The position numbers and the translations under genes were made by a program. 64,000 nucleotides of DNA from an uncultured virus (IMG/VR IMGVR_UViG_3300032331_002637). Its lineage: Duplodnaviria > Heunggongvirae > Uroviricota > Caudoviricetes. Below are positions 1-53,155 of the stretch, piece after piece; position 1 is the first letter of the stretch, and the number at the start of each line of letters is the position of its first letter. A model generated the notes under the pieces. It had not been told where the DNA came from. It searched no databases and worked only from the letters and a program-made list of their open reading frames with translations. The stretch covers positions 1 to 64,000 of IMG/VR virus record IMGVR_UViG_3300032331_002637. One strand, 5' to 3'.

Positions 1-216
1 GTCTTCGTCAGATTCTTCTTCGTCAGATTCCTCTTCGTCTTCGTCAGATTCTTCTTCGTCCTCTTCTGATTCTTCTTCGTCAGATTCTTCTTCGTCTTCG
101 TCAGATTCTTCTTCGTCTTCGTCAGATTCTTCTTCGTCAGATTCTTCTTCCTCCTCTTCAGATTCTTCTTCGTCAGATTCTTCTTCGTCCTCTTCAGATT
201 CTTCTTCGTCAGATTC
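1..216. repeat. Imperfect tandem repeat encoding (D)EEESD/E units
   Basis: Recurrent TTCTTCTTCGTCAGA / TCTTCGTC units of about 15-21 bp. Confidence 0.9.
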
Positions 217-366
217 TAAGTCTTCAGTGTCTTCGCCCTCTTCTTCTTCATCTGTTTCTTCTTCCTCTTCTTCCTCTATTTCAGAGTCTTGCCAAAAATC
301 ATTTTTTGGCATTTCAGAAGGTTTTCTTGAGTTAAACTCTTCGAATGATAATATTTTTTTATCCAT
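1..366 (-). CDS. Extremely acidic (E/D/S-rich) low-complexity protein, 3' end beyond window start; not in ORF track
   Basis: ATG at 366-364 reads MDKKILSFEEFNSRKPSEMPKNDFWQDSEIEEEEEETDEEEEGEDTEDLESDEEESEEDEEESD... with no stop down to base 1; follows the 379..630 gene on the same strand. Confidence 0.9.
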   Translation of the reverse strand, partial: MDKKILSFEEFNSRKPSEMPKNDFWQDSEIEEEEEEETDEEEEGEDTEDLESDEEESEEDEEESDEEESEEEEEESDEEESDEDEEESDEDEEESDEEESEEDEEESDEDEEESDEEESDED

Positions 367-378
367 TTTTTTTGTTTT

Positions 379-630
379 TTATTCAGTTACACCTATAGAA
401 GCTCCGCTTCCTGATTCTGTTGCTCCGTAACCAGGATAATCTATTTTAGAAAATCCATTAAAGATTGCGTCTTTATAACCAACATAATCATAAGCAGATT
501 CTGGTTTTATTTTATGTAATCCAGTTCTGTCTTCTTTACTAAGATTCTCCGGGTTCCAAGGATCATTAGCCACTTTCATAAAGTCTTTATAGCTAAGTAC
601 TTCTCTTTTTTTTACGTTCTTCTGATTCAT
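379..630 (-). CDS. Small hypothetical protein with capsid-targeting-like motif (VLSYKDFMK)
   Basis: 83-aa ORF packed between co-oriented genes 632..1354 and 1..366. Confidence 0.75.
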   Translation of the reverse strand: MNQKNVKKREVLSYKDFMKVANDPWNPENLSKEDRTGLHKIKPESAYDYVGYKDAIFNGFSKIDYPGYGATESGSGASIGVTE

Positions 631-631
631 A

Positions 632-1354
632 TTAATTAGCGAAATTTAAAATACTTGTTAATCCAGTTTTAGCAGCTTTAGCGAATATATTAGGATCTTT
701 ATTTTCTGCACCTTGTATTTCTGATGCTATTTTTTGTTTATCTGCATCTGTAACATTTTTACCGCCTATAACATCGCCTAAGTTAAATCCACAGATTTTA
801 TCACCTATCATAGTTTCAATATTGTTCATGAATGCTGTGTTGTTAGCTGCATTAGTTAAAGCCTCTCTTAGTCCTGCTGCTATAGTTGCTCCCATTCCAC
901 TTTGCATATCCATTTTTAAACCTAATCTAGGTAATAAATATTCTATACCTCTTTCTTGTAATGTTTCAGAAAGGCCTTCTACAATAGCTGTTGCCCAGAA
1001 TTTACAAGATCCTTTTCCAAAATAACTTCCAAGATCTGTAAAATGAACCTGCTCAATAACGTTTCGTATTACTTGATAAAAGAATGTTGGTTGACCCATT
1101 TCATCAAATGGTTCAATACCAAATTTTTCTGCTGCCCAGTCAATAACATAATCTTTAAAAGTGTCAGTAAAACCACCTCCTAATGATCCCAAGAACGAAG
1201 TAAAAATATTTTCATTTATTTGTTCTTCATTTAATCCCTCGGACTTAAGTTTAAGGTATTCATTTTCTAAAAGTGACATTTCATTACTGTATGATACATT
1301 TAATGAAGCATTTTTAGATTCTGCCAGAAATTGTGAATATTTACGAATAGTCAT
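632..1354 (-). CDS. Hypothetical protein, putative head-internal protein
   Basis: N-terminus MTIRKYSQFLAES resembles the T4 IP targeting sequence MKTYQEFIAE; further LNE/INE motifs; GATATATA motif upstream. Confidence 0.7.
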   Translation of the reverse strand: MTIRKYSQFLAESKNASLNVSYSNEMSLLENEYLKLKSEGLNEEQINENIFTSFLGSLGGGFTDTFKDYVIDWAAEKFGIEPFDEMGQPTFFYQVIRNVIEQVHFTDLGSYFGKGSCKFWATAIVEGLSETLQERGIEYLLPRLGLKMDMQSGMGATIAAGLREALTNAANNTAFMNNIETMIGDKICGFNLGDVIGGKNVTDADKQKIASEIQGAENKDPNIFAKAAKTGLTSILNFAN

Positions 1355-1372
1355 TTTAATCTACTTTTAATG

Positions 1373-1407
1373 TATATATCATTTTACCTGTGGGAATCTG
1401 ATATATA
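1373..1407. promoter_or_regulatory. Back-to-back GATATATA motifs (putative divergent late promoters)
   Basis: GATATATA on minus at 1380..1373 (before ATG 1354) and on plus at 1400..1407 (before ATG 1415). Confidence 0.6.
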
Positions 1408-1414
1408 TGTAGTA

Positions 1415-1825
1415 ATGGCAAGAATTTTAAAGATAGACAATTTTACAGATGCTTTTCCCAGCTTTTATGGATTAGAAGGAGATGGTGCTTGTTATAGTGT
1501 TACTAATCCATTTTCAGTGGATATTTTAATATCCTATGATGTTAAAGGTAAAATAGGTGATATAGATTACTTGGAGCCAACTTGGACACAATACCAATGT
1601 CAAGAAGGAGATCTTATAACATGTAACAAAAACGGATGTTATATAGAACCAAAGGCTTCTGAATATTTTGTTGAATGTATGCCTAACGATAAAACCAAAC
1701 CAGGAGAGCCAAACTTTGATAAATTCCCAGTGGAATCTTTAAAAAAAATAGGCATCGATTTAATAAATTCACAATCTATGGGATTTGAAGAAAGAAAGAA
1801 AATAACACTTACATCGGGATTATGA
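1415..1825 (+). CDS. Hypothetical protein (start revised from 1370 to 1415, MARILKIDNF)
   Basis: ATG at 1415 lies just after the GATATATA motif; the 1370 start would overlap the divergent promoter region. Confidence 0.7.
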   Translation: MARILKIDNFTDAFPSFYGLEGDGACYSVTNPFSVDILISYDVKGKIGDIDYLEPTWTQYQCQEGDLITCNKNGCYIEPKASEYFVECMPNDKTKPGEPNFDKFPVESLKKIGIDLINSQSMGFEERKKITLTSGL

Positions 1826-2385
1826 AAAGGATCTTTACATTTAACCAATTTAATCTAGACGAAAGTTCTGCTGCAGGAAATATGGGACAGACATATTCAA
1901 TACCGTTTGCTTATACATCTAACGATCCAAAAGATGGTTATAGTAGTAAAAGTTTTTGCGACGATTTAGAAGCTGTTTTTATAGAAAAACCAAATCTAAG
2001 AAAAGAAATTATTGAATTTTTATCATCCAACTTAGGGATATCAAAAATTGAAGAATTAGCAATAATGCCATTTATAAAAGTAGCTAAAGTCATACCTGAG
2101 ATAGAAAGAATAATAGAAGCAGGTGAATATGAGCCAGAGACCACAATGCCTGGAGGCGGATTACTATTTATAAGAAATAAGATTTTTGCTAATGGCGGAG
2201 GAGCAGATTTCTATATAAATAGAAAAGGCACTAAGGTGGAAGTTGTTACAGAGGACGAAATGGGTAACGAGAAGGTTCGAATATTTGATATAGAAAAATT
2301 CCCTTTCGATCGTTTTGAATTTACAGAAGAGGATAAAGAAGAACTTAATGCTTTAAAAAAAGCTAAAGGGGGATTCAGCTTTTAA
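1822..2385 (+). CDS. Hypothetical protein with capsid-targeting-like N-terminus (MKRIFTFNQFNLDES)
   Basis: 187-aa ORF, ATGA overlap with the upstream gene. Confidence 0.75.
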   Translation: MKRIFTFNQFNLDESSAAGNMGQTYSIPFAYTSNDPKDGYSSKSFCDDLEAVFIEKPNLRKEIIEFLSSNLGISKIEELAIMPFIKVAKVIPEIERIIEAGEYEPETTMPGGGLLFIRNKIFANGGGADFYINRKGTKVEVVTEDEMGNEKVRIFDIEKFPFDRFEFTEEDKEELNALKKAKGGFSF

Positions 2386-3088
2386 ACTTATTCATAATAA
2401 GATCTATAGATTTTTCTTTCCCTAGCTCTGTTCCTATCTCTAAATCAATATCCTTAGATACATCAGCGACTAACACACAATCATATTGAGTGGAAAAGTC
2501 TTTTATGTTTTCTTTTAGAAATTTTTTTATCTTAGCAATATCTTTTGTTGTGTTACATTGAGGATCTAATAATTCGGTCATTAATAAAGCTATATTCTCC
2601 TTACCCGCAACTTTAACTATGGAAAAGAACCAACTAAATATTCTCATGTGTTCTTCACCTTTTTTTCGCACAACTAAAAATCCTTGATCCCAAAGATTAT
2701 ATTTAGCACAATAGCTTTCGACATCAACTAATGAATTATATCTTTCATAAAATTCTCTGTTATCATTAAGAAACTCATTGATTACTTTGATTGAATTTTT
2801 TACAATATTTTCTATCTCTTCTATATCATCAAGATTTTTATCAAGAATATCATACATGTGGCTTCTTTCATCATCTGTCATTTTAGATAATGTCTTTTGT
2901 GTTAGCTCTGTGTTTTTATCAAAGCTCTCTAAATCTTTTTTTATTGTAATTAGATTCTTAAAATACTTCTCAAATCCTTGTGTTTTAAAGCTCTCTTTGA
3001 CTCTCATTAAATAAGCCATAAGAATATAATATCTATATTCTGTATCTATTGGGGATTCTATAAACCAATAAGGCTTTAATTCTTTCAT
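2375..3088 (-). CDS. Hypothetical protein
   Basis: 237-aa ORF; AATATATA motif upstream (3119..3112); N-terminal WF..PIDxEYRYYILMAYL recalls a Bacteroidota hypothetical family (from memory, unverified). Confidence 0.75.
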   Translation of the reverse strand: MKELKPYWFIESPIDTEYRYYILMAYLMRVKESFKTQGFEKYFKNLITIKKDLESFDKNTELTQKTLSKMTDDERSHMYDILDKNLDDIEEIENIVKNSIKVINEFLNDNREFYERYNSLVDVESYCAKYNLWDQGFLVVRKKGEEHMRIFSWFFSIVKVAGKENIALLMTELLDPQCNTTKDIAKIKKFLKENIKDFSTQYDCVLVADVSKDIDLEIGTELGKEKSIDLIMNKFKS

Positions 3089-3165
3089 GTAATCTTGTTA
3101 ATACATTATATTATATATTAAATCAGGGAAAATTATTCATGAATTGAAAATATATCTGAAATATT

Positions 3166-3194: not shown

Positions 3195-3243
3195 TTTTAT
3201 CTTTAAAATCCCAGGCTATGAATACTTTATATATGATAATCTT

Positions 3244-3864
3244 ATGAGTCCCCAATTTTTAGTAATAGCTTATTATACTGAGAGCACACAATATGAAGTC
3301 CTAGCTGGTAATCTCGAGAAGACTTTACAAAACTTTAGTATTCCTTTTTATATAGAAGATATAGAGGATTTAGGTTCTTGGGAAAAGAATACACATTACA
3401 AAGCACATTTTATTAAGAAATGTTTAAATGACAGAAATCAAGATCTTTTATATGTAGATGTTGATGCACTCTTTAAACAATACCCAAGTCTTATACCAGA
3501 TCTCACATGTGATATAGCATATAGAACGCAAGACTTCAGATGGAGAGCAGACGAAGCCCTATCAGGAACTATCTTTCTAAAGAATAATGACAAGGTTAAG
3601 AGATTTGTTGATCGATGGATCCAACTAAATGAAGCCACACCCGCAGAAAGAATGAAACCTGAAACATGGGAGCAAAAAAATATGCAAAGAGCTCATCGAG
3701 AAATGACCGAGATCGATTATTTCAATCTACCACCAGAATACACATTCATATTTGATCACATGAAAACAATGTATCCTGGAGTACAGCCTGTGATAGAGCA
3801 TTATCAAGAATCAAGGAATGTGCATAGAAATACGAATCAAAATCGTAATTTCAGGATAAGATAA
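3244..3864 (+). CDS. Putative GT-A fold nucleotide-diphospho-sugar transferase
   Basis: DxD motif LLYVDVDA, SGTIFL, WEQ motif, C-terminal IEHYQ. Confidence 0.7.
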   Translation: MSPQFLVIAYYTESTQYEVLAGNLEKTLQNFSIPFYIEDIEDLGSWEKNTHYKAHFIKKCLNDRNQDLLYVDVDALFKQYPSLIPDLTCDIAYRTQDFRWRADEALSGTIFLKNNDKVKRFVDRWIQLNEATPAERMKPETWEQKNMQRAHREMTEIDYFNLPPEYTFIFDHMKTMYPGVQPVIEHYQESRNVHRNTNQNRNFRIR

Positions 3865-3866
3865 TT

Positions 3867-4601
3867 ATGAAATTAAAATATGCTGTAGTCAGCTCCGATT
3901 CAAATCCTGAATATCTTGATTTTTGGCCTTACGTAGCTAAAGCATGGAAAAGAATAGGTATAGAACCAGTACTACTTTATATTGATAAACAAACTCCACC
4001 AGAGAGCGTACATGAACATGGAAAGGTAATATATCTTGAATCAATATCTGAATGGAGTATAGCTCAACAAGCACAATGTATAAGATTTTGGGCAGCTAAG
4101 CTATTAGATGCTCCTTTTATAATATCAGATATTGATATGCTTCCTATTTCTGAAGAATATTATAAAAATGGTGTGGCTTCCATTGGAGATAAAGGTATAG
4201 TTTCTTACAGCTCTGATATTATTAAATATAGATGGTATGTAACTAATCCACAATACCCTATGTGTTATCTTGCAGGAGACACACAAAGCTTTATTGATCT
4301 ATTAGAAATGAATGATAATTCTCATCAGAATTTTTTAAGAAGATTAATGAAAATGAATATAAGATTTGGTACAGATCAGAAGTTCTTTTATAATCAATCT
4401 GTTAAAAATAAACACATATCTATTAAGCATTTAGAAAGAGGATGGATAGAAGAGAAATATGCTAGAGGAAGATTGGATAAAGTGATCTGGCCAAAAACAG
4501 ACTATAATGCAGATGAATATATAGATTGTCATTTACCAAGACCGTTATCCTCAAATATTGGGATTTGTAAAGAATTATTTAATAAAATTAGAATATATTA
4601 A
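3867..4601 (+). CDS. Putative glycosyltransferase-like protein
   Basis: IISDIDMLP DxD motif, GTDQ, YIDCHLPRP; operon context. Confidence 0.55.
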   Translation: MKLKYAVVSSDSNPEYLDFWPYVAKAWKRIGIEPVLLYIDKQTPPESVHEHGKVIYLESISEWSIAQQAQCIRFWAAKLLDAPFIISDIDMLPISEEYYKNGVASIGDKGIVSYSSDIIKYRWYVTNPQYPMCYLAGDTQSFIDLLEMNDNSHQNFLRRLMKMNIRFGTDQKFFYNQSVKNKHISIKHLERGWIEEKYARGRLDKVIWPKTDYNADEYIDCHLPRPLSSNIGICKELFNKIRIY

Positions 4602-5411
4602 ATGAAATTATCAATAATACTTCCCACAGGTGGAAATGACCATCTAAGAAATAGAAATTTTAACGAGTGTCTTACTTGTATTAAAAATCAGACTTTTGTT
4701 GATTATGAAGTTATTGTGGTGGAGCAATCATTAGATAATAATTTTTACAAACAAAGTAATCCAATTATTTCTTATAAACACATAGGAATTAAAGATCCAC
4801 ATGATAGAGGATTTAATCTTAGCTGGTGTAGAAATGTAGGAGCAAGAGAAGCACAAGGTGATATTATAGTCCTGATGGATTCTGATTTTGTTTTTGAAAA
4901 TAATTATTTCACTATCATTAGTGAATTTAATGGAGAATTTGCTGCTGGAGCGGAAACATATTATTGGTGTAATACTGAAGATCCCACTACCGATTGGATA
5001 AGAACAAAAGACTTTAATGTTTTTAAAAAAAGAGGTGGTGGCCCTAGAGACCCTGTATTTCAATTTAGATCTATGTCTAGAGGATGTGGGTACGGAGCTA
5101 TACTAGTTTATAATAAAGAATGGTTCTGGAATACTATGGGAGGATACAACGAAAACTTCTTTAGATATGGCTGGGAAGATAAAGCAACAACGGAAATGAT
5201 TAAATCATTGCTTGATAGGGATGATGAGAGTATGTTAAGAATTCCTTCAGAAGCAGCACATCTTAATCATAGATCTAAAGATGTTAGGAATATGAATATA
5301 AATGAAGCACTTTTTAATAAATTTACTAGAATGGATCAATTAGAGCTTTCAAAAACAATAAAAGAATCATTTGTTGGCAAAAGATCAGAGCCTACTTTAT
5401 TAAATATTTAA
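4602..5411 (+). CDS. Glycosyltransferase (GT2 / GT7 C-terminal-like)
   Basis: LSIILP, FNLSWCRNVGA, MDSD, GGYNENFFRYGWED. Confidence 0.85.
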   Translation: MKLSIILPTGGNDHLRNRNFNECLTCIKNQTFVDYEVIVVEQSLDNNFYKQSNPIISYKHIGIKDPHDRGFNLSWCRNVGAREAQGDIIVLMDSDFVFENNYFTIISEFNGEFAAGAETYYWCNTEDPTTDWIRTKDFNVFKKRGGGPRDPVFQFRSMSRGCGYGAILVYNKEWFWNTMGGYNENFFRYGWEDKATTEMIKSLLDRDDESMLRIPSEAAHLNHRSKDVRNMNINEALFNKFTRMDQLELSKTIKESFVGKRSEPTLLNI

Positions 5412-5414
5412 TTC

Positions 5415-6575
5415 ATGAAAAAACCAGAAAGAGATATATCTGAGGAAAGAAGAGGAAGAAGAATATTAAACAGATTCATTCACGGAAATAAAAATAATAT
5501 CACCTTTAATAAAGAAGTAGAAGATGTTATAACAAATAAGAATCCTATAATAGAATTATACGAAAAAAATAAGTTAGATTATATAATGGAAAAAAATAAT
5601 ACTGATATAGCTAAATATTGGGAACATCTTAGTATAATAAACGAAAATAATATTGATAATTCTCTTCCCTTTTTTATTAATATTTCCACAATTAATTATA
5701 ATGATTTAAGCAATTTAGCGGAAGAAAAAAATAAAGAGCTTTTTAAATGCTTTGATGGATTAACTGTAGATAAGTGTATTGGTGAGTATGATTTGGTTAC
5801 TATAATTCCTTACAGAGGAAGATACATGCATTTAGAAAAAACATTAGAAACATTATTAGCTTCTTCTAATAATTCTTCAAAGAGAATAGGTTTTATTATT
5901 ATAGAAAACTCTAATGAATCTATATTTAATCCTGATAAATTTAATAATCCAGATATACATCACCGATGGATTAATTCAGCTGGTAATATATTTAATAAAT
6001 GTTTTTGTCATAATATAGGATCATTAATAAGTAATACTGAATATTTACATTTTCATGACTGTGATTTATTAGTACCTAATAATTTCTATGCGGAGGTTTT
6101 TAATAAAATAGAATTGAATGATGTAGTACAGTGTTTTTATAATAGAAGAGTTAATTATCTGAATGAAATTCCAACAATTGATTATTTTAACGGTGAAGAT
6201 ATAGAATCTATAATTGTTAATAAACAAACATATAAGGAAGGTGGATATGGAGCACCGGGAGGATCTATTGCAATATCAAAGGATCTTTTTGAAAAATGTG
6301 GAGGATTTGATCCTCATTTTTTCTGGGGATATTCTATAGAAGATGCTTTTTTCTGGAAGAAAGTTGAAAGATTTAAAACCATAATAACATTAGATGATCC
6401 TAAGATAGAATTATACCATTTATGGCATCCTCCTGCATGGGGAAAAAATCCTATGCAAGGTGTAGAGAAGAGAATACACGATTCATTTGTAAACAATAAT
6501 CATAATTGGTTAGATTATGTAAATAAATCGAAAGAACTTTATATTAGAATTAAAAATACTTTTATAAATGAATAA
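5415..6575 (+). CDS. GT7-like (beta-1,4-galactosyltransferase-type) glycosyltransferase
   Basis: IIPYRGRYMHL, FNKCFCHNIG, FHDCD, GGFDPHFFWGYSIED, YHLWH. Confidence 0.85.
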   Translation: MKKPERDISEERRGRRILNRFIHGNKNNITFNKEVEDVITNKNPIIELYEKNKLDYIMEKNNTDIAKYWEHLSIINENNIDNSLPFFINISTINYNDLSNLAEEKNKELFKCFDGLTVDKCIGEYDLVTIIPYRGRYMHLEKTLETLLASSNNSSKRIGFIIIENSNESIFNPDKFNNPDIHHRWINSAGNIFNKCFCHNIGSLISNTEYLHFHDCDLLVPNNFYAEVFNKIELNDVVQCFYNRRVNYLNEIPTIDYFNGEDIESIIVNKQTYKEGGYGAPGGSIAISKDLFEKCGGFDPHFFWGYSIEDAFFWKKVERFKTIITLDDPKIELYHLWHPPAWGKNPMQGVEKRIHDSFVNNNHNWLDYVNKSKELYIRIKNTFINE

Positions 6576-7485
6576 AAAAATATTAATAACAGGAGGTACA
6601 TCACATTTAGCTGAAAGTCTAAAAAAATATTTACCTAATGCTTCTTATATAGAAGGAAGATCTGAATTAGATCTAACTGATTATCAATCAACATTAGAAT
6701 ACTTTAAAAATGAATCTCCGTATTGGGTTTTACATTTAGCAGCTAAAGTTGGTGGTATTAAAAGTAACATGGAAAATCCTTTTGAGTATTTCTATGACAA
6801 TCTATTAATTAATACTAATGTTTTTAGAGCATGTAAAGAATTAGAAATAGAAAGATTAACCTCTATATTATCAACATGTGTATATCCAGCAGATAATGTT
6901 GAATATCCAATAACTGAAGATAATATTATTTTAGGTGATCCAGAAAAAACAAATAGAGGTTATGCTCAATCTAAAAGAATATTAGCAGAACTCACTGATC
7001 TTTATAATCATAAATACGGAAAAAATTATAATTATATTATTCCTTGTAATCTTTTTGGTATGGAAGAATCATATGATCCTAATAAAACACATTTTCTTAC
7101 ATCATTGATTTATAAATCTGCTAAAGCATTATCCAATGGGAATAAAGAACTTGAAATGTTTGGTAGCGGTAAAGTTCTAAGACAATTTGTAACGTATGAC
7201 GATTTTGCAAGAATGTTAGCTTATTGTGTTGACAACGAAGTCACTGAATCTTTTAACTTTTCTCCTGATTATAATTTATCATTAATTGAATATGGAAGTA
7301 TTATAGAGAATATCACTGATAAAAAAATTAAGGTTACATTCAACGGTAATGGACCTGACGGGGTATACAGAAAAGATGCAGATAATTCAAGAATGAAAAA
7401 AATAGCACCTGATTTTGAATTTAGTGTACTAAGAGAAAGTATAAAAGAAGTATTAGATTTTTATTTAGCAAATGATAGCATTTAG
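6568..7485 (+). CDS. fcl: GDP-L-fucose synthase / GDP-colitose synthase-type epimerase-reductase
   Basis: ILITGG, HLAAKVGGIKSN, STCVYP, YAQSK (YxxxK), PCNLFG, GSGKVLRQF, PDG. Confidence 0.9.
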   Translation: MNKKILITGGTSHLAESLKKYLPNASYIEGRSELDLTDYQSTLEYFKNESPYWVLHLAAKVGGIKSNMENPFEYFYDNLLINTNVFRACKELEIERLTSILSTCVYPADNVEYPITEDNIILGDPEKTNRGYAQSKRILAELTDLYNHKYGKNYNYIIPCNLFGMEESYDPNKTHFLTSLIYKSAKALSNGNKELEMFGSGKVLRQFVTYDDFARMLAYCVDNEVTESFNFSPDYNLSLIEYGSIIENITDKKIKVTFNGNGPDGVYRKDADNSRMKKIAPDFEFSVLRESIKEVLDFYLANDSI

Positions 7486-8212
7486 TCACTTAGGAAAATA
7501 TGGTAAATTGGGCAATCAGCTTTTTCAAATTGCTGTTGTTTATTCACATTGTACTAGAAATGGCAAAGAATTTATTTTCCCTGAGTGGAAATATAATTCC
7601 TATTTAAAAACACCAATTAGAACAGGATCAATACCACCAGGACTAATTTTACACAGAGAAAAAGATCCTTTTTCTTTCACACCTATTCCTAATATAGATA
7701 ACATTGATCTCATTGGATATTTTCAGAATGAGAATTATTTTAATGGAGAAGAGGACACGATAAGGGATCTTTTAGAACCAGCAGATTTTGTAAAATCTAA
7801 AATAGAAGAAATAAATTTAGAAGGAATAACTGCTATACATGTAAGAAGAGGAGATTATCTAAACTTCCCTTTACATCATCCTATACCTCCTATGGATTAT
7901 TATAATAGATCAATAGAAAATTTAAAAGATAAGACTAATAACTTTATGATTTTCTCTGATGATATCGGATGGTGTAAAGAAAACTTTCCCTCCGATTTTT
8001 TATTTTCCGAGGAGAAAGATGAGTTTATAGACCTTTATAAAATGTCTAGATGTGCTAATTTTATAATCGCGAATTCAAGTTTTTCTTGGTGGGCATCATT
8101 CTTAAGCAGATCCGAAAATAAAATAATATATGCTCCTGAAAATTGGGTAGGAAGAGGATACTCAGGTACTAGCTGGAGACAAGTTTACAGAAAAGAAATG
8201 AAAATAATATAG
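7472..8212 (+). CDS. GT11 alpha-1,2-fucosyltransferase-like
   Basis: GKLGNQLFQ, GYFQNE, HVRRGDY, FSDDIGWC, IANSSFSWWA. Confidence 0.93.
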   Translation: MIAFSHLGKYGKLGNQLFQIAVVYSHCTRNGKEFIFPEWKYNSYLKTPIRTGSIPPGLILHREKDPFSFTPIPNIDNIDLIGYFQNENYFNGEEDTIRDLLEPADFVKSKIEEINLEGITAIHVRRGDYLNFPLHHPIPPMDYYNRSIENLKDKTNNFMIFSDDIGWCKENFPSDFLFSEEKDEFIDLYKMSRCANFIIANSSFSWWASFLSRSENKIIYAPENWVGRGYSGTSWRQVYRKEMKII

Positions 8213-8216
8213 TATA

Positions 8217-9080
8217 ATGGGAAAAGAAACAATAGGTATTATAGGACAAGGATTTGTCGGATCTGCTGTTAGGGAAGGAATGGAAAAATATTTTGATGTT
8301 ATATGTTTTGATAAGGATCCTAATAAATTTAGCAATTCGGTATCTGTATTTAATGTTGTAGAGAATAGTGTATTATGCTTTTTATGTGTCCCAACTCCTA
8401 TGAAAAAATCGGGGGAATGCGATTTAAGTATAGTTAATAAAGCCCTTAATGAAATTTATGAATGTACTACATCTTTAAATAAAAACCAATATATAGTAGT
8501 GATAAAATCCACTATACCACCAGGAACTACTAGTAAATTAAATTTAGAATTCCCAAATATTTCCATTGTTTTTAATCCAGAATTTTTAACGGAGGCTAAT
8601 TCTGTTAATGATTACTTAGAACAAAACCGAATAATTATAGGTGGAGACAGACCAGCATCATCGAAAGTTAAGATGATTTTTTCTAAAGCATTTCCCCGTA
8701 TACCTATAATTAAAACTAGCTCCACTATTGCAGAGACTATTAAGTATGTAACTAATACATTTTTAGCAATGAAGGTTTCGTATGCTAATGAAGTTTATCA
8801 GATATGTCAGGAATTAAATATAGATTATGATAAAGTTATAGAATACTCAAGATATGATGATAGACTTGGAAATTCACATTGGTCGGTTCCTGGACCTGAT
8901 GGAGATTTTGGCTTTGGTGGACATTGCTTCCCTAAAGACTTAGCTGCTTTTGAATTTATTGCAAAAGAAATGGGTATAGATACAATAATGTTAACTGCTG
9001 CATTAGATAAAAATAAAAAAGTAAGAAAAAACCTAGATTGGGTTAAACAAGTAGGAAGAGCAGTATCGTTAGAAGAATAA
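8217..9080 (+). CDS. ugd: UDP-glucose/GDP-mannose dehydrogenase family, short form without the C-terminal domain
   Basis: GQGFVG, CVPTP, KSTIPPGTT, FNPEFLTE, KYVTNTFLAMKVS, GFGGHCFPKD. Confidence 0.88.
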   Translation: MGKETIGIIGQGFVGSAVREGMEKYFDVICFDKDPNKFSNSVSVFNVVENSVLCFLCVPTPMKKSGECDLSIVNKALNEIYECTTSLNKNQYIVVIKSTIPPGTTSKLNLEFPNISIVFNPEFLTEANSVNDYLEQNRIIIGGDRPASSKVKMIFSKAFPRIPIIKTSSTIAETIKYVTNTFLAMKVSYANEVYQICQELNIDYDKVIEYSRYDDRLGNSHWSVPGPDGDFGFGGHCFPKDLAAFEFIAKEMGIDTIMLTAALDKNKKVRKNLDWVKQVGRAVSLEE

Positions 9081-9081
9081 T

Positions 9082-9699
9082 ATGAAAATACCAGGAATAG
9101 ATAATATTTATTGCATAAATCTAGAAAGGAGACCCGATAGAAGGAATGAAGCTACGGAAGAATTTAAAAGATTTGACCTTGATTTTGAATTTTTTAACGG
9201 CGTCGATGGACATGAATTAAAAGTAAACTCTAGAATAAAACCTGGACACGTAGGATGTGTTATGTCACATCTTAATCTTTATAGATATCTTAAAGAACAA
9301 AAGGGAGATATCTTTATGATAACAGAGGATGATGTTGTCTTCGATGAAAATTTCATATCTAGTTATTTAGATGTAGTAAGACATGTTCCTTCTGATTGGC
9401 ATCTTTTATATTTAGGTGGTAACCATAACGGAATGCCATTAAACATAATAGCACCAAATATACACAGGTTGCAAAAAACATATACTACTCATTGTTATTT
9501 AGTTAAAAAGACACATCTAGATATTTTGATCAAACAATTTGATACTCCTCATATTTTCTATAACGAGGTTGATGTACATTTAGCCCATTTACAATCAAAA
9601 GTACCTTGCTATGGATTTACTCCGTCAATAGCTTGGCAAAGAGATGGATTCTCTGATATAGAAATGAAAAACGTTGAATATAATTTTTTAAAAAAATAA
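9082..9699 (+). CDS. GT25 glycosyltransferase
   Basis: YCINLERRPDRR, GVDG, GCVMSH, EDD, LLYLGG. Confidence 0.9.
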   Translation: MKIPGIDNIYCINLERRPDRRNEATEEFKRFDLDFEFFNGVDGHELKVNSRIKPGHVGCVMSHLNLYRYLKEQKGDIFMITEDDVVFDENFISSYLDVVRHVPSDWHLLYLGGNHNGMPLNIIAPNIHRLQKTYTTHCYLVKKTHLDILIKQFDTPHIFYNEVDVHLAHLQSKVPCYGFTPSIAWQRDGFSDIEMKNVEYNFLKK

Positions 9700-9700
9700 A

Positions 9701-10639
9701 ATGGAAAATACATTTATCTTTACTGAAGCTTTTAATTGTGGAAAGATACTAGCGATTTGCCTAGAATCTTTTCATAGACACCACGATTTAAAAGTACATA
9801 TAATTGGTACATCTAGAGATTTCGAAGAAGCAGGTGATATCATAAATCATCCTAATAATGTTTTAATTAATTGGGATTCTAATGCAGCTGCAAAAGAAAA
9901 ATGGTCCACAGGTCACCAAGGAACTGCACTTGCTTTTGCAACTGCTATGAAAGGAAATATACATTCTGATAAATTTGTAATACATCTTGACTCTGATTGT
10001 TATTTTAAAGGCGAGTGTATATCCGATATAACTTCTATGCTAAATAACGGATATGATATAGTAGGTTCTCCTAGGCCTTATAAGAATAATCTAAGTGGGG
10101 TAAAGGGATTAGATAACACACCCGATTGTGTTTCTACATATTTAATGGGTGTAAATACACATAAGATACCTAATTATGATTTTGATATGTTTACAAGAAT
10201 GTGTGGAGGATGGGCTTCTCCTACTGGACATAGAGTTCTAGATTTCTTTGATCCTGTTACCCATGCAATAATAACAAACGGAGGAAGAATAGGATTTCTA
10301 GACACATACAAATATGGTGGTATAGATTTAAATGGATCTAAGAATAATGGATTTGAATCGAATCTTAATTTTGACTGTGGATCACATATTGCTCATTTTG
10401 GGGGGGTAGGATCAGGTAAAGCAGTTGCTGATAATTTATCTGAGCCACCAAAAGGATATGCTGATTGGGCTTATTACAGATGGAATTTTTTCTCGCATAT
10501 ATTCTTTAACACTGAAGCTTTAGAAAGCCCAGTAGCAGTATATTCATCACCCTCAGATCATCAAGGTAAAAGATGGTGTAACGGTGCAGCAGATTCTTCT
10601 ATAATAAATAACGCAAAAAAAGAACTTAATTTAAACTAA
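9701..10639 (+). CDS. Putative GT-A fold glycosyltransferase
   Basis: VIHLDSD DxD motif, HFGG; operon context. Confidence 0.5.
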   Translation: MENTFIFTEAFNCGKILAICLESFHRHHDLKVHIIGTSRDFEEAGDIINHPNNVLINWDSNAAAKEKWSTGHQGTALAFATAMKGNIHSDKFVIHLDSDCYFKGECISDITSMLNNGYDIVGSPRPYKNNLSGVKGLDNTPDCVSTYLMGVNTHKIPNYDFDMFTRMCGGWASPTGHRVLDFFDPVTHAIITNGGRIGFLDTYKYGGIDLNGSKNNGFESNLNFDCGSHIAHFGGVGSGKAVADNLSEPPKGYADWAYYRWNFFSHIFFNTEALESPVAVYSSPSDHQGKRWCNGAADSSIINNAKKELNLN

Positions 10640-10640
10640 A

Positions 10641-11444
10641 ATGATAAAGCCAATAGTACAGGATCTAATATTAAAAGGATGGGGTGTGGATCCTGATACA
10701 TATTTTGGAGAATATAATAAAAGAGTAGCTATAGAAATAGATCCTTTTCGTGATCCACATTGGATAAATGATGAGTCTTTATTTAAAGTAGTAGTTCAAG
10801 TTGAACCTCCGTCTGTAACTAATAAAGCAGTAGAACAGTATCTTGATGAGGAGGGAAATAAATTCGATCTTATTCTTACATATTATTCTTCTATTCTTAA
10901 ATCGAACAAGAAAGCTAAACTTTTTTATTTCGGTGACTCTTGGATAAAGAAGAAAAGCGAATCTATAGATAAAACAAGAAACGTTTCATTTGTAACATCT
11001 AACAAGAATTTTACTCCTGGGCATGCTGTAAGAATGAAGGTAGTTGATTCTCTTCACTTAGGATTAGCTAGATTTGATTTATATGGTAGGGGATTTAATC
11101 CTATAGAAAAAAAAGAAGAGGGACTTAATGACTATAAATTCTCTATAGTAATTGAGAATGAGTTTATGGAAAATTGGTTTACTGAAAAAATAGTCGATTG
11201 CTTTAGAACTAAAACAATCCCGATCTATAAAGGATGTCCTAATATTAAAGATTTCTATAATGAGAAAGGAATAATAAAATTTGATACTATGGAAGAACTT
11301 TACTCGATATTAAATGACATAAATTATAACGGGGATTCAATTTATGATTCGATGAGAGATTCAATGGAAAATAATTATAATAAATCATGGGCAGATCCTA
11401 CATTTAATGAAAGGGTAGAGATAGAGATAAAAAAATATTTATAG
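10641..11444 (+). CDS. GT10-like (alpha-1,3/4-fucosyltransferase-type) glycosyltransferase
   Basis: FVTSNK, DLYGRG, YKFSIVIEN...WFTEKIVDCF...IPIYKG. Confidence 0.85.
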   Translation: MIKPIVQDLILKGWGVDPDTYFGEYNKRVAIEIDPFRDPHWINDESLFKVVVQVEPPSVTNKAVEQYLDEEGNKFDLILTYYSSILKSNKKAKLFYFGDSWIKKKSESIDKTRNVSFVTSNKNFTPGHAVRMKVVDSLHLGLARFDLYGRGFNPIEKKEEGLNDYKFSIVIENEFMENWFTEKIVDCFRTKTIPIYKGCPNIKDFYNEKGIIKFDTMEELYSILNDINYNGDSIYDSMRDSMENNYNKSWADPTFNERVEIEIKKYL

Positions 11445-11456
11445 TGCGTTAATATC

Positions 11457-11993
11457 ATGAATAAGATTATAATTACAGATTTCGATGGAATTTTTACATC
11501 TCCGGGTTTTATTTACACAAAAGATGGAAAGATAGGTAAATTATTTTCACCTAATGACGGAGGAATTTATCATTTATTATTAGATAATTTAGAATATTTT
11601 GGATTATCGGATGTAATTATATTAACAGGTGAGGATAAATATGAGGGACTTGAAGTCACTGAAAAAAGACTAAGTGATCTTGGTCTTTTAAATAAGCTTA
11701 ATTTTTCCCCTGGTAAAGAAAAATATAATTGGATAAAATCTAGATATAAAATGAATGATGTAATATATTTTGGAGACGACCTTTATGATATAAATATTTT
11801 TAGCGAGTGCTTTTATTCTTGTACTCCTTTGCATTCACCGCTTATATTAAAACGAAATTCTTCTTATTCTTCTGGCTATAAAGGAGGAGAAGATGCTTTC
11901 ACTGACATGATCACACATGTTACAGAAGAAATTCTAAATAAGAGCATCACAGAAATAATAAATAAACAAAAAAAATATGATACTAAATCTTGA
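11457..11993 (+). CDS. kdsC: KdsC-like HAD phosphatase (Kdo-8-P phosphatase family)
   Basis: ITDFDGIFT, F..NDG, ILTG, YFGDDLYD, GGEDAF. Confidence 0.75.
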   Translation: MNKIIITDFDGIFTSPGFIYTKDGKIGKLFSPNDGGIYHLLLDNLEYFGLSDVIILTGEDKYEGLEVTEKRLSDLGLLNKLNFSPGKEKYNWIKSRYKMNDVIYFGDDLYDINIFSECFYSCTPLHSPLILKRNSSYSSGYKGGEDAFTDMITHVTEEILNKSITEIINKQKKYDTKS

Positions 11994-13421: not shown

Positions 13422-13425
13422 GGGT

Positions 13426-17047: not shown

Positions 17048-17064
17048 ATGTAAGTAATTTAGTT

Positions 17065-17107
17065 TATATATTTTACTCGAAACCTATATGATTATTTCAT
17101 GTATAAT
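17065..17107. promoter_or_regulatory. Divergent promoter region inside the glycan island
   Basis: AATATATA on minus (17072..17065); GAAAC(17079)-N18-TATAAT(17102) on plus. Confidence 0.55.
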
Positions 17108-17122
17108 AATAAAAAAAATAAT

Positions 17123-20509: not shown

Positions 20510-20527
20510 GATAATTTAATAATAGAA

Positions 20528-22467: not shown

Positions 22468-22477
22468 AATATAAAAT

Positions 22478-41213: not shown

Positions 41214-41567
41214 ATGAAAAATTTAATAGAATATAATAGCTTCTTATTAGAATCTAAATCGATTAATGATTCTAGATCCTTTGAGGATAGAGTTAAGTTT
41301 CTTAGGGGTGTATCTGACAATAATAAAAAAATTGCAATAGATTTACAAAAAGAATATTCTAGAGCAAATAAAGGTGTAATAACAGAATTAAATTTACATC
41401 CGGATTTAATTAAGAAGATTAAGGAAAAAAAATACCCAGATGGATTCAGCATGGGTATTGATAAAAATGGATTCTTTGTACATACTCATAGGGCTAGATC
41501 TAAATCACACGAAACTCCTTCTGGTATAACAGCAAAAGAAATGAAATTCATAGATTCTACTGGCTAA
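41214..41567 (+). CDS. Hypothetical protein with capsid-targeting-like N-terminus (MKNLIEYNSFLLES)
   Basis: 117-aa ORF; GATATATG upstream at 41174. Confidence 0.7.
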   Translation: MKNLIEYNSFLLESKSINDSRSFEDRVKFLRGVSDNNKKIAIDLQKEYSRANKGVITELNLHPDLIKKIKEKKYPDGFSMGIDKNGFFVHTHRARSKSHETPSGITAKEMKFIDSTG

Positions 41568-43992: not shown

Positions 43993-43993
43993 G

Positions 43994-50758: not shown

Positions 50759-50766
50759 TAATTATT

Positions 50767-51039
50767 TCAATAACATTCATCTATTAATTTAGCCAATTTT
50801 ATATCTTTTTCTGTTATTATATCTCCCGCATCATGGGTTGATAACTTGAGAGATATTTTATTATAAACCCAATTAATTTCCGGATGATGGTTTTCCGCTT
50901 CGCATATTATTGAAATATCATTTATAAATTTTAAAGCCTGTTTAAAATCAGAAAAATTAAAATTTCTTTCCAGTTTATTATAAACTTCTTTCCAATCGGA
51001 ATTTGGTTGGAATTTTTTATATTTTTTTATGTGTATCAT
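50767..51039 (-). CDS. phhB: Pterin-4-alpha-carbinolamine dehydratase
   Basis: LERNFNFSDFKQALKFI, EAENHHPEI, LSTHDAG, ITEKDIKLAKLID. Confidence 0.93.
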   Translation of the reverse strand: MIHIKKYKKFQPNSDWKEVYNKLERNFNFSDFKQALKFINDISIICEAENHHPEINWVYNKISLKLSTHDAGDIITEKDIKLAKLIDECY

Positions 51040-51082
51040 TATTTTAAAAATAGTTATTTATACTATGTAATAGATTTATTCT

Positions 51083-53155
51083 CTAGTAATTTCTTGAATA
51101 CAGGAAAATAATATAATCTAATAGTGTTGGAAACTTTATTATATCCGAATTTCTCGCAGAAATAGAACCGCACTTTTCCACCAAATCATCTACTTTTTGA
51201 TCATCTGGAGCTTCTGCTAATGATTTTCCTGAATCTTTTCTACTAAATTTTGAATTCATTATAGATTTTTTTATCTCATCTAAATCAGTTAATTCAGTAA
51301 ATGATTCCAATTTTGATAAGATACCCGGACTTGATGATTCTAATTCCCAAACCATATTTCTCATCCTTGAATAATAATTCTTTAATTCTTCGTAAGTTTT
51401 ATTAATATTGCCTAATCTTTCATATTCTGATATTAACTCTTTAAAAGGAACTATTCTAATATCACACACAGATCTATCAAATACAACTACTTCACTTCGT
51501 AAAGCACTTTCAATATATTCTTCTTTTGTTAAAGCAACTTCCCTCGAAACCATTGGTAAATTGACAGGAACTTCCCCATCAGGAGTATTCATATACCATT
51601 TATTAGCCATACCTTTTATACCATAAGGTGTGTATAATCTATTCTCATCTTTTAAACCACCTTGACTTCCACTATCAGATCCACCTGGATTATCATCAAC
51701 CATTTTTACTCCTGGTTTAATTGATAGTTCATATACTCTTTTTGTTATTCTTATAGATATTAATCCGCCTTCTCTTGTACCAAGAATAGTGGGCCAGTTG
51801 TTTGCCCCGGTCATTAATTTAGCAGCATACATACCACCTTGTTCTCTGAAAAGAAAGTCTAAGTCAGTAGGTGATATTTTACCACCATGATATACTTTAC
51901 CACATCCTTCTTCAAGTTTATATACTTCAGAGCCTCCAACATAATCTTCTGATGTAGTAAATCTTTCAGAATAATATTTATCGACATTAGAGTTATAGAA
52001 GTCAAAGAATTCTTTAATAGTCATATCTCCATAGATATTAAGAATATAGTTAATTAGATTAAGAAGACTTTCATTCATACTTGTTTGTAGTTCTTCACCT
52101 TTTGATCTTATCTTTGAAAGTTCTGATTCACTATAATAATACTTAAATATATCTTTAAGAGTATTTAGTTTATCTATAAATTTTTGAGAACTTTGTCTTT
52201 CTGAATTAATCTGATTAGACCAACTAACTACCCTTTCTAATTCTGATTTAAGTAATTTAAGATTTTCTAACTCTGATATTCTTTTACTAAAGTCTATTTT
52301 TTGGATGTAATCTTTACCAAGAGTATCTTCAAATGATTTTGGGTTTTCTTTCCCATAGTCATTTGGCTTATAAGGCTTACCTTGGAAAGCTATAAATGAT
52401 TTCATTAACTTAGCTATATTATTAGATGAAGGACCAACTGAACCCCTTTCATCTATATTAAACTCCGTCACCGGTTTACTATCTCTACCAATTTTCATAT
52501 ATGAAAAAATATCATCATAATACTTTAATAAATTAGTATCTGGTTCTTTAATTTCTTTATCTTCTTCTTTGAATGTGGCTTTTTGAAACTCTTCTTTGTT
52601 TACTACTTTAGATAGTGCTTTTAATAATGTACTTTTGGCTATATTACCTTTTGATGATTCAATTCTAGATTTAATATCTCTTATATCACTTTCATCAAAT
52701 TTCATATAAGCATTAAACTCACTATCTGTGATATCTTCTACTTTGGAAAAGTCAGGATTTCCTTTTATGTAATCCATTAACATTTGAATAAGATCACCTC
52801 TTGATTGTGATTTACTCTTTTTAATATACTCAAGTGAATCTGCCAATTCTTTTTTCCATTCACCAGTCTCTATAATTTTAGTAAAGTTATCTATGACTTC
52901 TTTTACTAATTCATCATCACTTTCTTCTAAGGTGTATGGAAGATCTGTTATTTTTGGAGGTGTGATGGAGTCTTTGAATAATTCAATTTGTCTTGTAACT
53001 GATTCTATTCTATCTTTGGTCTTACCAGTAACGTTTCTCAAGAACTTGTCAAAGAACCCCTCTTTAATATGTCTTAATTCTCTAAACTGATTACCAAAAA
53101 TTCCTTCGCTAACATTACTATTAATAAAATCATTAAAACTTTTTATTCTTCTCAT
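51083..53155 (-). CDS. 690-aa putative head-packaged protein with candidate H-Y-E ADP-ribosyltransferase domain
   Basis: N-terminus MRRIKSFNDFINS; C-terminal half VYHGG...GGMYAA...VYELSI...YGIKG...SEVVVFD. Confidence 0.55.
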   Translation of the reverse strand: MRRIKSFNDFINSNVSEGIFGNQFRELRHIKEGFFDKFLRNVTGKTKDRIESVTRQIELFKDSITPPKITDLPYTLEESDDELVKEVIDNFTKIIETGEWKKELADSLEYIKKSKSQSRGDLIQMLMDYIKGNPDFSKVEDITDSEFNAYMKFDESDIRDIKSRIESSKGNIAKSTLLKALSKVVNKEEFQKATFKEEDKEIKEPDTNLLKYYDDIFSYMKIGRDSKPVTEFNIDERGSVGPSSNNIAKLMKSFIAFQGKPYKPNDYGKENPKSFEDTLGKDYIQKIDFSKRISELENLKLLKSELERVVSWSNQINSERQSSQKFIDKLNTLKDIFKYYYSESELSKIRSKGEELQTSMNESLLNLINYILNIYGDMTIKEFFDFYNSNVDKYYSERFTTSEDYVGGSEVYKLEEGCGKVYHGGKISPTDLDFLFREQGGMYAAKLMTGANNWPTILGTREGGLISIRITKRVYELSIKPGVKMVDDNPGGSDSGSQGGLKDENRLYTPYGIKGMANKWYMNTPDGEVPVNLPMVSREVALTKEEYIESALRSEVVVFDRSVCDIRIVPFKELISEYERLGNINKTYEELKNYYSRMRNMVWELESSSPGILSKLESFTELTDLDEIKKSIMNSKFSRKDSGKSLAEAPDDQKVDDLVEKCGSISARNSDIIKFPTLLDYIIFLYSRNY

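Follow-up and report, generated by a model that had tools for sequence, protein, structure and literature searches.

Proteins that enter the host together with the phage genome act ahead of phage gene expression; anti-restriction and host-takeover factors are among those of T4. T4 Alt is a large, head-associated ADP-ribosyltransferase that is injected and carries a cleaved leader. IPI, IPII and IPIII, which are internal proteins of T4, bear a capsid-targeting sequence (CTS) that gp21, the prohead protease, cuts off (Mullaney and Black 1996, as summarised in PMC9026906, PMC5694885 and PMC3012670), and mutagenesis of the CTS assigned residues 4 and 7 to targeting and residues 8 and 10 to processing (review PMC9026906). 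Diverse proteins of T2, T6 and other T-even phages have CTS-like leaders, and the CTS may be a general loading route (PMC9026906, PMC3012670); these phages are close kin of T4 with a few small genes. Among the phages with SPN3US/phiKZ ejection proteins, SPN3US likewise has many head proteins whose N-terminal leader the prohead protease cuts, but these leaders mostly exceed 100 aa and have no common short motif. In P1 an N-terminal signal suffices for packaging of DarB, although the Dar proteins have no common consensus. A literature search found no survey of such motifs across whole genomes of Bacteroidota jumbo phages or cyanophages.

Here we describe a leader, or tag, in an uncultured freshwater jumbo phage represented by a 120-kb contig (G000), of which a stretch of 64,000 nt, the window, was the starting point. 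The phage also occurs in lakes of 12 studies besides the possible source. As in the T4 CTS, about ten N-terminal residues combine a basic start, aromatics at i and i+3 and a hydrophobic-x-Glu end, the bodies behind them are unrelated, and a gp21-type protease is found in the same phage. In contrast to the three small basic IPs of T4, about 20 of the 121 ORFs on the contig are tagged, and the bodies reach 729 aa, are non-basic and include host-like enzymes, ATPases and peptidases. As a set, the tagged proteins are not small basic proteins from early or middle regions as the T4 IPs are; this is a trait of the IPs, not of the signal. Also unlike T4, the leaders vary in length, a second Glu site is present, copies occur at C-termini (to our knowledge not known for the CTS of T4), and the protease is fused to a scaffold with a tag-like 14-residue repeat. 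What is new is the scale, the host-like enzymes, the tagging of an acidic protein at both ends and the likeness to the scaffold repeat.

A protein-level motif portable over unrelated folds

The preliminary description listed eight window ORFs sharing an N-terminal motif, and all eight starts and N-terminal sequences were found in place. Seven scored above internal windows (each p<=0.002), while the eighth, at 1415 on the plus strand, did not (score -1.5, p=0.10) and was rejected as a member. The pattern as originally worded matched only the ORFs starting at 366, 1822 and 53155 (3/8), and the remark that ES often follows was true of 3/8. Even so, this exact pattern occurred in 3/57 window ORFs and 3/64 ORFs beyond the window, against 0 matches in 34,820 internal positions and shuffle means of 0.004-0.008. 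When a profile built from the eight sites was applied to the 64 ORFs outside the window with a 99% internal null, 11 passed, whereas 300 shuffles of the ORFs' own N-termini gave 0.7 (maximum 4), bearing out the proposed N-terminal excess. One of these 11 (99855, DUF192) is probably false; only its first residues drive its pass and 0/4 orthologues pass. The original tally was too low, with about 13 further tagged ORFs between 78 and 116 kb on this contig. Six related contigs carry 22-61 tags each, on 8-18% of their ORFs.

The consensus of the clade sites is M-[KR]-[HRNK]-I-[KL]-x-[FY]-x-[ED]-F-[LIV]-N-E. The conserved columns are an aromatic (F/Y in 161/188 sites), a second aromatic at +3 (170/188) and the hydrophobic-x-Glu, and they coincide with the T4 residues for targeting and processing. 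A profile containing no T4 sequence scored IPII and IPIII (starts taken from NC_000866) at 12.8 and IPI at 8.3, above a threshold of 7.5; 11 T4 ORFs exceeded this threshold, only 3 of them known IPs, and Alt, gp22 and gp68 fell below it.

The same leader precedes unrelated bodies: 130/1052 families include a tagged member, and among 21 matches on the contig only two ATPases resemble each other, in agreement with the earlier view that the bearers are unrelated. It is conserved at the protein level, the best orthologue being tagged in 109/143 cases against 25/682 in the comparison set. C-terminal copies numbered 45 versus 15 expected, and copies also occur inside proteins. Tagged proteins have a median length of 198 aa and a median net charge of -0.016 per residue (70/223 net basic). 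The idea that tagged genes turn over fast was rejected, since the opposite was found: 71/223 tagged versus 689/1409 untagged genes were lineage-specific, the untagged set including spurious short ORFs. As first noted, glycan enzymes and baseplate proteins are untagged (0/26 glycan and 0/11 tail/baseplate/neck ORFs), as are replication/nucleotide ORFs (0/16, in a list excluding the tagged adenylate kinase). Among the closest cultured relatives, tags are scarce or absent: MaF61 (0/196), PAU (3/302) and PTm1 (1/309) are at chance level, and MA9V-1 has 6/273 versus 1.8 expected, including ORFs at 122538, 126193 and 176213 and one at the start of its record. The capsid leaders of PTm1 and MA9V-1 contain INE/LNE. 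bS21 was found in G008 only (1/5 records), which does not suffice to assign the phage to the bS21 clades of PMC9723584.

Tagged genes and their candidate cargo

Table 1. Positions of tagged genes, a doubtful member (1415), domains and upstream elements in the 64,000-nt window
Feature	Position	Strand	Details
GATATATA element	1373..1380	-	Ahead of the 1354, 630 and 366 genes; from sequence
GATATATA element	1400..1407	+	Precedes genes 1415 and 1822; from sequence
Very acidic protein	1..366	-	Truncated by contig end; 218 aa in near-identical G001
83-aa conserved protein	379..630	-	Tag spans residues 9-17; lacks a following Glu site
240-aa protein, no family	632..1354	-	Tag, variable linker, INE at E48, glycine-rich helical body
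136-aa protein	1415..1825	+	Motif-like start not above background
187-aa tagged protein, no family	1822..2385	+	LDE site at E14; score 16.1
117-aa tagged protein	41214..41567	+	In neck/baseplate block; LLE at E13; score 12.2
Pterin-4a-carbinolamine dehydratase (PCD)	50767..51039	-	PF01329 E=6e-26; added tag
690-aa tagged protein	51083..53155	-	VSE17 and IKE32 sites; score 22.9; ART-fold domain
ART-fold domain	51416..51958	-	Residues 400-580; H423, Y443, E555 in H-Y-E triad order

The acidic protein (ORF 1..366) carries a tag at its N-terminus and a second copy at its C-terminus. Its 15 distinct homologues (177-277 aa, with a middle of 51-81% D/E) retain the first in 14/15 and the second in 12/15, suggesting a gp67-like core filler or a two-handed tether. 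The tag of ORF 379..630 scored 9.2 (p=0.002), and 25/44 homologues in capsid-gene loci pass the threshold; the motif starts at residue 8. For ORF 632..1354, an alignment of 16 homologues (21-81% identity) has M1, F9 and E48 invariant; leaders range from about 19 to 48 aa, 20/23 homologues are tagged, and an Atlas search with the body returned hits of 0.76 at best. Membership of ORF 1415..1825 is doubtful: homologues passed in 0/2 cases in capsid loci and 0/1 in the relative G007. Its ATG lies inside a longer ORF (1370), behind its own GATATATA, and orthologues begin at the same ATG. The G007 orthologue of ORF 1822..2385 is tagged, with INE, and among the matches listed for ORF 41214..41567, 67/120 homologues pass with varied tags.

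NCBIfam gave names to none of the tagged window ORFs save PCD, whose identity was rightly called. Among PCD homologues 65/120 pass the tag threshold; the copy here lacks a Glu that is retained in many of them, and in a tree 9 rows without a tag-like leader lie on one side of a branch with SH-aLRT 93. The 690-aa protein had been named a candidate ART, and this holds as a fold call. An AlphaFold2 model of the domain from 13 sequences reached pLDDT 83, and the top Foldseek and VIA rows were nearly all ART-fold proteins, at weak scores (E>=7.7e-3, Z<=5.9). E555 is invariant in the 13 sequences and H423 nearly so. Searches of the ORF against Pfam, PHROG and NCBIfam gave no match, and the domain alignment gave nothing significant against PDB sequences and Pfam; a single-sequence fold of the whole protein (pLDDT 33) was of no use. 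Each of the 10 homologues read full-length has a leader at its start, which is of this type in 7 and worded otherwise in 3. The protein is a likely analogue of T4 Alt, from which it differs in its H-Y-E type residues and in its leader, that of Alt failing as a tag (score 2.4).

Elsewhere the tagged set includes adenylate kinase, GNAT and CHAP domains and MoxR-type ATPases with peptidases, and in G007 a Tad3; about 84 of 94 tagged family representatives have no convincing Pfam family. In this phage the cytidylyltransferase (80391) is untagged at the N-terminus and fused behind another domain; an internal tag before the cytidylyltransferase domain, spotted by eye, was sub-threshold in 5/5 sequences.

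The element GATATATA lies upstream of 87/223 tagged genes against 82/1405 (p=5e-37, odds ratio about 10), while TATAAT was not enriched upstream of tagged genes. It also precedes the protease-scaffold gene and is presumably a late-type promoter. RNA runs gave contigs over parts of 344-1333; such contigs cannot demonstrate transcription.

Prohead protease, putative cleavage site and virion content of cyanophages

A gp21-type protease-scaffold and the capsid protein lie directly upstream of the window, as placed by the near-identical contigs G001 and G006 (99% identical to G000 over 18 kb). In these the PF03420 protease is fused to a scaffold with 9 [ILV]NE sites. PF03420 was found in 5/5 related records including G006, and PF07068 in G001, neither being on the G000 contig itself; a PF03420 match in G003, a solitary protein of 137 aa away from the head block, was rejected as head protease. 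The capsid protein has SLNE-SAG at residues 40-46 in 59/59 distinct sequences, so that its LNE propeptide site is invariant. The scaffold contains 8-12 repeats of 14 residues with the aromatic-x-x-aromatic-hydrophobic-x-Glu spacing of the tag; in the protease-scaffold of G006 (residues 1-678) the repeats lie at about residues 275-430.

A matching site is attached to the leaders. [ILV]NE occurs within the first 40 aa of 79/223 tagged versus 52/1231 untagged proteins, and hydrophobic-x-E closes the leader in 17/20 credible tags of the contig; three of the seven window tags (366, 630 and 51039) have no adjoining Glu site. Edges of conservation coincide with the Glu, for example E48 of ORF 632..1354, and the Tad3 domain of the G007 protein starts directly after its LNE.

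Published virion proteomes of cyanophages were also compared. In the S-CREM2 virion table (PMC10665884), 6/8 tagged ORFs were detected versus 45/207 (p=0.0026), including 4/4 of those scoring above 10; gp6, gp13, gp15, gp136 and gp154 of this phage bear the tag, which accounts for only 5/26 non-structural virion proteins. S-SZBM1 showed no enrichment: with 28 virion proteins matched, 1/4 tagged ORFs was found in the set (p=0.42). The top-scoring S-SM1 ORF was virion-detected, with gene-size matching ambiguous for 32/40 sizes. A virion-detected cytidylyltransferase has the top tag score in S-CREM2 and S-SM1 and the third in S-SZBM1; because these are homologues, they count as one line of evidence. 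Cytidylyltransferase/NMNAT has been found repeatedly in purified T4-like cyanophage virions, the authors being undecided between packaging and contamination (PMC10665884, PMC9602691); unlike these tagged proteins, the homologue here (80391) has no N-terminal tag. A literature search did not find T4 61.1 as a term in virion proteomes.

Taken together, the proposed likeness to the T4 capsid-targeting sequence is well supported indirectly, by the shared critical positions, the profile scores of IPI-III, the gp21-type protease and the matching propeptide, and further by the late-type upstream element and the enrichment in one virion proteome.

Probable packaging, possible delivery and alternative explanations

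The motif is probably the T4 capsid-targeting sequence in the form it takes in this clade, serving core binding, packaging and cleavage, with part of the cargo ejected. Late in infection, tagged proteins would be made from GATATATA-led genes. By analogy with T4, the two aromatics would bind the prohead core formed by the fused gp21 protease/gp22-like scaffold, and since the scaffold repeats have the spacing of the tag, the tag might enter the core by mimicking the scaffold. After shell closure the protease would cut behind [ILV]-x-E, the leader being lost like the capsid propeptide, and the freed bodies would remain in the head. Some of them (the ART, the Tad3-like anti-defence protein, small enzymes) may be ejected with the DNA, as are the T4 IPs and Alt, while others, such as the acidic protein, may be core parts. 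Packaging of tagged proteins in this phage is predicted from comparison; injection is less sure because some bearers resemble core parts, and ejection would be the least sure step.

Alternatively, the tag may bind the prohead core while its bearers are transient core or maturation parts, shredded or left in the emptied head, with little or no delivery. Such a role would suit the doubly tagged acidic protein, the tagged genes flanking the capsid gene (160/736 distinct ORF starts in 80 capsid loci), the above-average conservation of tagged genes and the virion-assembly role proposed for the MoxR-vWA-peptidase module (Iyer et al. 2021, PMC7824862), which is tagged here. However, it is not evident what PCD, adenylate kinase, the ART fold, Tad3, GNAT and CHAP would do in an empty prohead, tagged S-CREM2 proteins are still in mature virions, and [ILV]NE is no denser in tagged bodies (1.2 versus 1.0 per 1000 aa), indicating that they are not made for shredding. 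We consider this explanation unlikely.

It is similarly improbable that the motif docks to a non-capsid hub (a phage chaperone, an AAA+ machine or a late assembly site) that gathers late proteins in the cell, its T4 likeness being convergent. N-terminal, C-terminal and internal copies, tags without a cleavage Glu, the T4 false positives and the S-SZBM1 null would all fit a hub, but it leaves unexplained why the attached [ILV]NE is identical to the capsid propeptide site, the agreement with the T4 functional residues and the S-CREM2 enrichment.

That the motif is an export signal, or a by-product of AT-rich starts (translation-initiation bias, or a DNA or RNA element), is most improbable and largely refuted: M-K-[KR]-I starts are common in AT-rich genes and genome GC is 32%, but own-N-terminus shuffles rarely pass, in PTm1, PAU and MaF61, which are AT-rich phages of Bacteroidota, the motif does not exceed chance, the motif Phe codons (TTT:TTC 89:43 and 128:52) match genome usage (0.68:0.32), which argues for selection on the protein, and a hydrophobic stretch of the Sec/lipoprotein kind (9-aa hydropathy >2.5 within the first 40 residues) occurs in 4/220 tagged versus 138/1282 untagged N-termini.

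If the motif is a capsid-targeting sequence, the signal itself is already known from T4 and used for foreign-protein packaging, and the gain lies in scale, cargo type and prediction. With about one sixth of the proteins tagged, much of the head content is probably readable from sequence. The tag provides a ranked list of candidate injected proteins among otherwise anonymous ORFs, and the tagged Tad3 homologue indicates that genuine counter-defence proteins can be on such a list. The tag also suggests a reason why cytidylyltransferase recurs in purified cyanophage virions. More tentatively, and on balance doubtfully, a clade of 250-300 kb freshwater Bacteroidota phages might load 10-18% of its proteome (some 30-60 proteins) by scaffold-repeat mimicry and inject a kit of nucleotide and pterin enzymes, an ART, anti-defence proteins such as Tad3, and MoxR-vWA-peptidase machines with protease-unmasked mature N-termini (E/G-hydrophobic-hydrophobic amphipathic helices). 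Were this so, genomes alone could suffice to list the proteins that T4-like phages inject, with unnamed counter-defence proteins among them.

The N-terminal motif and the T4 capsid-targeting sequence

The preliminary description had placed a shared N-terminal motif, here called the tag, at eight ORF starts in the window (366-, 630-, 1354-, 1415+, 1822+, 41214+, 51039- and 53155-). All eight positions were correct and seven sites held as members (p<=0.002), while 1415+ was not supported (p=0.10 against internal windows). The literal pattern proposed there fitted only three of its own eight sites, yet it was non-random, occurring in 3/64 ORFs outside the window and at 0/34,820 internal positions. 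As a clean test of the motif, a profile built solely from the eight sites was applied to held-out ORFs outside the window at the 99% level of the internal null; 11/64 passed, against a mean of 0.7 (maximum 4) for composition-matched shuffles (300 per N-terminus), and the expected N-terminal excess was thereby observed. Iteration of the profile converged on 20/121 ORFs of the contig, with a score gap from 16.9 to 2.3. A second profile, re-estimated on 188 sites from five related contigs and incompletely independent because it contains the first-profile seed and orthologues, was passed by 21/123 contig ORFs (0.6 expected). The ORF at 99855, among those passing, is probably false. As had been claimed, glycan (0/26) and tail/neck ORFs (0/11) were untagged; likewise, 0/16 replication ORFs carried a tag, in a list that excluded adenylate kinase, itself tagged.

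The motif is genuine, and the clade's tag system is probably a variant of the T4 capsid-targeting sequence (CTS) system, the signal itself being already known. According to the review PMC9026906, CTS targeting depends on residues 4 and 7, processing depends on residues 8 and 10, and the prohead protease gp21 cleaves after L/I-x-E; these targeting and processing residues are the conserved columns of the clade tag. On the clade profile the T4 internal proteins IPII and IPIII scored 12.8 and IPI scored 8.3. Among all 270 called T4 ORFs, 11 passed, a precision of 3/11 on known internal proteins, and Alt, gp22 and gp68 failed. The highest T4 score belonged to a 54-aa ORF at 18966, which we take to be gene 61.1. 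Another T4 ORF, at 58819 (score 9.7), resembles by eye the DUF5856 protein of the contig. In reviews, the CTS had already been generalised to T4 relatives (PMC3012670, PMC5694885, PMC9026906), and P1 is described as possessing a packaging signal of its own (PMC9024508). No genome-wide account of such tags in Bacteroidota jumbo phages or cyanophages was found in the literature searched, subscription journals lying outside its scope.

Spread and portability of the tag

The contig (119,756 bp, 32% GC, CheckV completeness 43%) encodes within the window baseplate, neck and tail-tube homologues, gp32, primase, UvsY/W, a split family-B polymerase, topoisomerase II and NrdAB, and is therefore a T4-like jumbo myophage. 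Its closest cultured relatives by tblastn (25-35% identity) were Flavobacterium phage MaF61, Chryseobacterium MA9V-1/2, PAU, Tenacibaculum pT24/PTm1 and Lak phages; together with the A-rich, Shine-Dalgarno-free start regions of its genes, this points to a Bacteroidota host. For window 400-2400, 68-72% of words were present in lake/freshwater metagenomes of 12 studies beyond the possible source study. The related contig G008 encodes bS21.

A profile built from this contig alone detected tags (score >8) in 28/337, 16/318, 10/72 and 10/195 ORFs of related contigs (internal null 0-0.15%). The second profile gave 61/337, 33/318, 11/72, 24/195, 55/339 and 22/280, counts on training sets that include some false matches, e.g. 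MTREEF repeat genes. When families were made after deleting the first 22 residues, 130/1052 contained a tagged member, and the best orthologue was tagged for 109/143 tagged proteins versus 25/682 others. Phe codons in both aromatic columns matched genome usage, so the motif is kept at the protein level; tagged N-termini contained no hydrophobic signal core. Tags were at or near chance in the AT-rich cultured relatives MaF61 (0/196), PAU (3/302), PTm1 (1/309) and MA9V-1 (6/273 ORFs, against an expectation of 1.8); four of the six MA9V-1 starts are clearly tag-like. Homologues of tagged domains with leaders worded differently (P0128, P0131, P0133 and P0209, of MKILITERQY.. and MSKEIREQIDRV.. types) were also observed, which hints that tag dialects have arisen in parallel in further clades of phages.

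The clearest case of portability is pterin-4a-carbinolamine dehydratase (PCD, 51039-), already named as a tag bearer and indeed tagged. Its homologues passed the threshold in 65/120 cases, bearing tags of many wordings directly ahead of the domain's first Trp, and the remainder include proteins starting at that Trp. In a tree of the domain alone (77 columns, built by a quick method and poorly resolved), a branch with SH-aLRT 93 had the 9 rows without a tag-like leader all on the same side. This pattern suggests that the PCD tag was gained once, at the base of a phage clade; the 90:29 label count underestimates tag-like leaders, many of which the classifier overlooked. For adenylate kinase (97388), 3/4 orthologues were tagged and the fourth scored 7.0; in one, hardly anything separates the tag from the first strand. 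Tags also occur on both MoxR-type ATPases and on the metallopeptidase halves that accompany them, and the vWA halves are untagged. When 94/99 representatives of tagged families in relatives were searched against Pfam, few could be named: Tad3 (E=4.5e-21), OmpA, CHAP (two weak matches), GNAT, HD and one 2OG oxygenase, whose tag is doubtful. Tad3 was present in related contigs G007 and G005 and was not found in G000, G001, G006 or G008.

Features of the contig and its relatives (G000, this contig; G001, G003, G006 and G008, related contigs; L016, sequence record of G001)
Feature	Location	Remarks
GATATATA, two copies back to back	window 1373-1380 and 1400-1407	
Sugar-nucleotide and glycosyltransferase genes, ~25	window 3244-23101	one block; none tagged
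S1-domain protein, phage-encoded	window 37650-38759	within tail block
MoxR-type ATPase / metallopeptidase / vWA modules, two	G000 82434-85891, 110375-113771	peptidase and vWA separate genes, fused in G008
Hc1 histone-like protein	G000 87062-87241	
Two proteins with conserved tag-like motif	G000 87726-88541	motif at C-terminus only
ATG-started 624-aa ORF	G000 92521-94395	resembles off-frame reading across repeat (collagen-like?) gene
Short C-terminal motifs	G000 113787-114656, 115130-116050, and relatives	
DUF5856 protein	G000 114678-115115	short tag-like start, score 6.2
gp21-type protease fused to scaffold, 678 aa	upstream of window, G001/G006	PF03420
Capsid gene	upstream of window, G001/G006	PF07068
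RimK-family ATP-grasp ligase fused to retropepsin-like peptidase	L016:7511-9007 (G001), just upstream of window	between capsid genes and tagged trio; GATATATA upstream
Protease-like protein, solitary, 137 aa	G003:4026-4439	PF03420; outside head block

Prohead protease, leader site and upstream element

Related contigs G001 (99% identity to this contig across 18 kb) and G006 (100% identity to G001 across 10.8 kb) reach beyond window position 1 on its upstream side and locate protease-scaffold and capsid genes ~8-12 kb before the window. SLNE-SAG stood at capsid leader residues 40-46 in 59/59 distinct sequences, and the scaffold has nine [ILV]NE sites. The tag end and the capsid leader site are this same word, which occurred inside the first 40 residues of 79/223 tagged versus 52/1231 untagged proteins. 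Among 16 homologues of ORF 632..1354 (-) (21-81% identity), the only invariant leader residues were M1, F9 and E48, the intervening linker differing by ~30 residues; the Tad3 Pfam match begins at residue 49 (profile position 7), directly after LNE. A repeat filter selected 45 distinct protease-scaffolds, each of which carried 8-12 Y-x-[ED]-Y-[LIV]-x-E units whose spacing is a multiple of 14 residues; on the tag profile the best unit scored 7-10 in 44/45 (shuffles 4-6). The tag may imitate these repeats, or they may be no more than protease sites. A predicted post-cleavage N-terminus of G-hydrophobic-hydrophobic, often an amphipathic helix, was noted in 11/228 tagged versus 3/1241 untagged proteins (e.g. 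contig 110375 and 84302, window 53155- and 1354-, and L016:1831-2718 of G001); possibly, the protease would unmask a membrane-seeking N-terminus.

The element GATATATA lay ahead of 87/223 tagged versus 82/1405 untagged genes (p=5e-37), and likewise precedes the protease-scaffold gene. It is read as a candidate late promoter because it is analogous to the T4 late promoter element, TATAAATA.

Virion proteomes and possible fates of tagged proteins

Used as a proxy for packaging, shallow virion proteomes of three distant phages gave one positive, one null and one anecdote. For S-CREM2 (PMC10665884, Table 3; 51/52 virion proteins matched to ORFs), 6/8 tagged ORFs were in the virion versus 45/207 others (p=0.0026), including 4/4 scoring above 10; the endolysin among the six is likely there by chance, and the tag accounts for only 5/26 non-structural virion proteins. 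For S-SZBM1, no enrichment was found (PMC9146016, Table 1; 28/30 matched), with 1/4 tagged ORFs in the virion versus 27/217 (p=0.42). For S-SM1 (PMC3037559, supplementary Table 8), a cytidylyltransferase had the top score of 237 ORFs and was detected in the virion (25 counts); another detected protein scored 6.6, under the threshold.

ORF 51083-53155 (-) is the candidate ADP-ribosyltransferase (ART) of the tagged set. Its domain at residues 400-580 had 13 relatives among the representative sequences searched, and a model (pLDDT 83) retrieved ART-fold proteins in nearly all top Foldseek and VIA rows, weakly (E 7.7e-3, Z 5.9). E555 is invariant, and H423, Y443 and E555 fit as candidate H-Y-E ART residues in the model; 10/10 fully read relatives start with a leader. 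The acidic ORF at 1..366 (-), complete in relatives, has a front tag in 14/15 and another at its extreme C-terminus in 12/15, like a putative two-handed core filler. C-terminal tag copies numbered 45/1536 versus 15 expected. Second short C-terminal motifs were seen on some tagged proteins, GDLGF-stop in 7/220 versus 4/1282 untagged and LKRFG in 4/220 versus 4/1282.

The preliminary description took the tagged set for injected cargo. Several points speak against a pure form of this picture: no Glu site adjoins 3/7 window tags, the tagged proteins as a set lack a basic character, restriction to a single lineage is rarer among them (71/223) than among untagged ORFs (689/1409), and Iyer et al. (PMC7824862) assigned the MoxR-vWA-peptidase module to virion assembly. 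Packaging of tagged proteins in the head is likely, and their injection on a large scale is rather doubtful; the tagged set is probably a mixture of core parts and ejected effectors.
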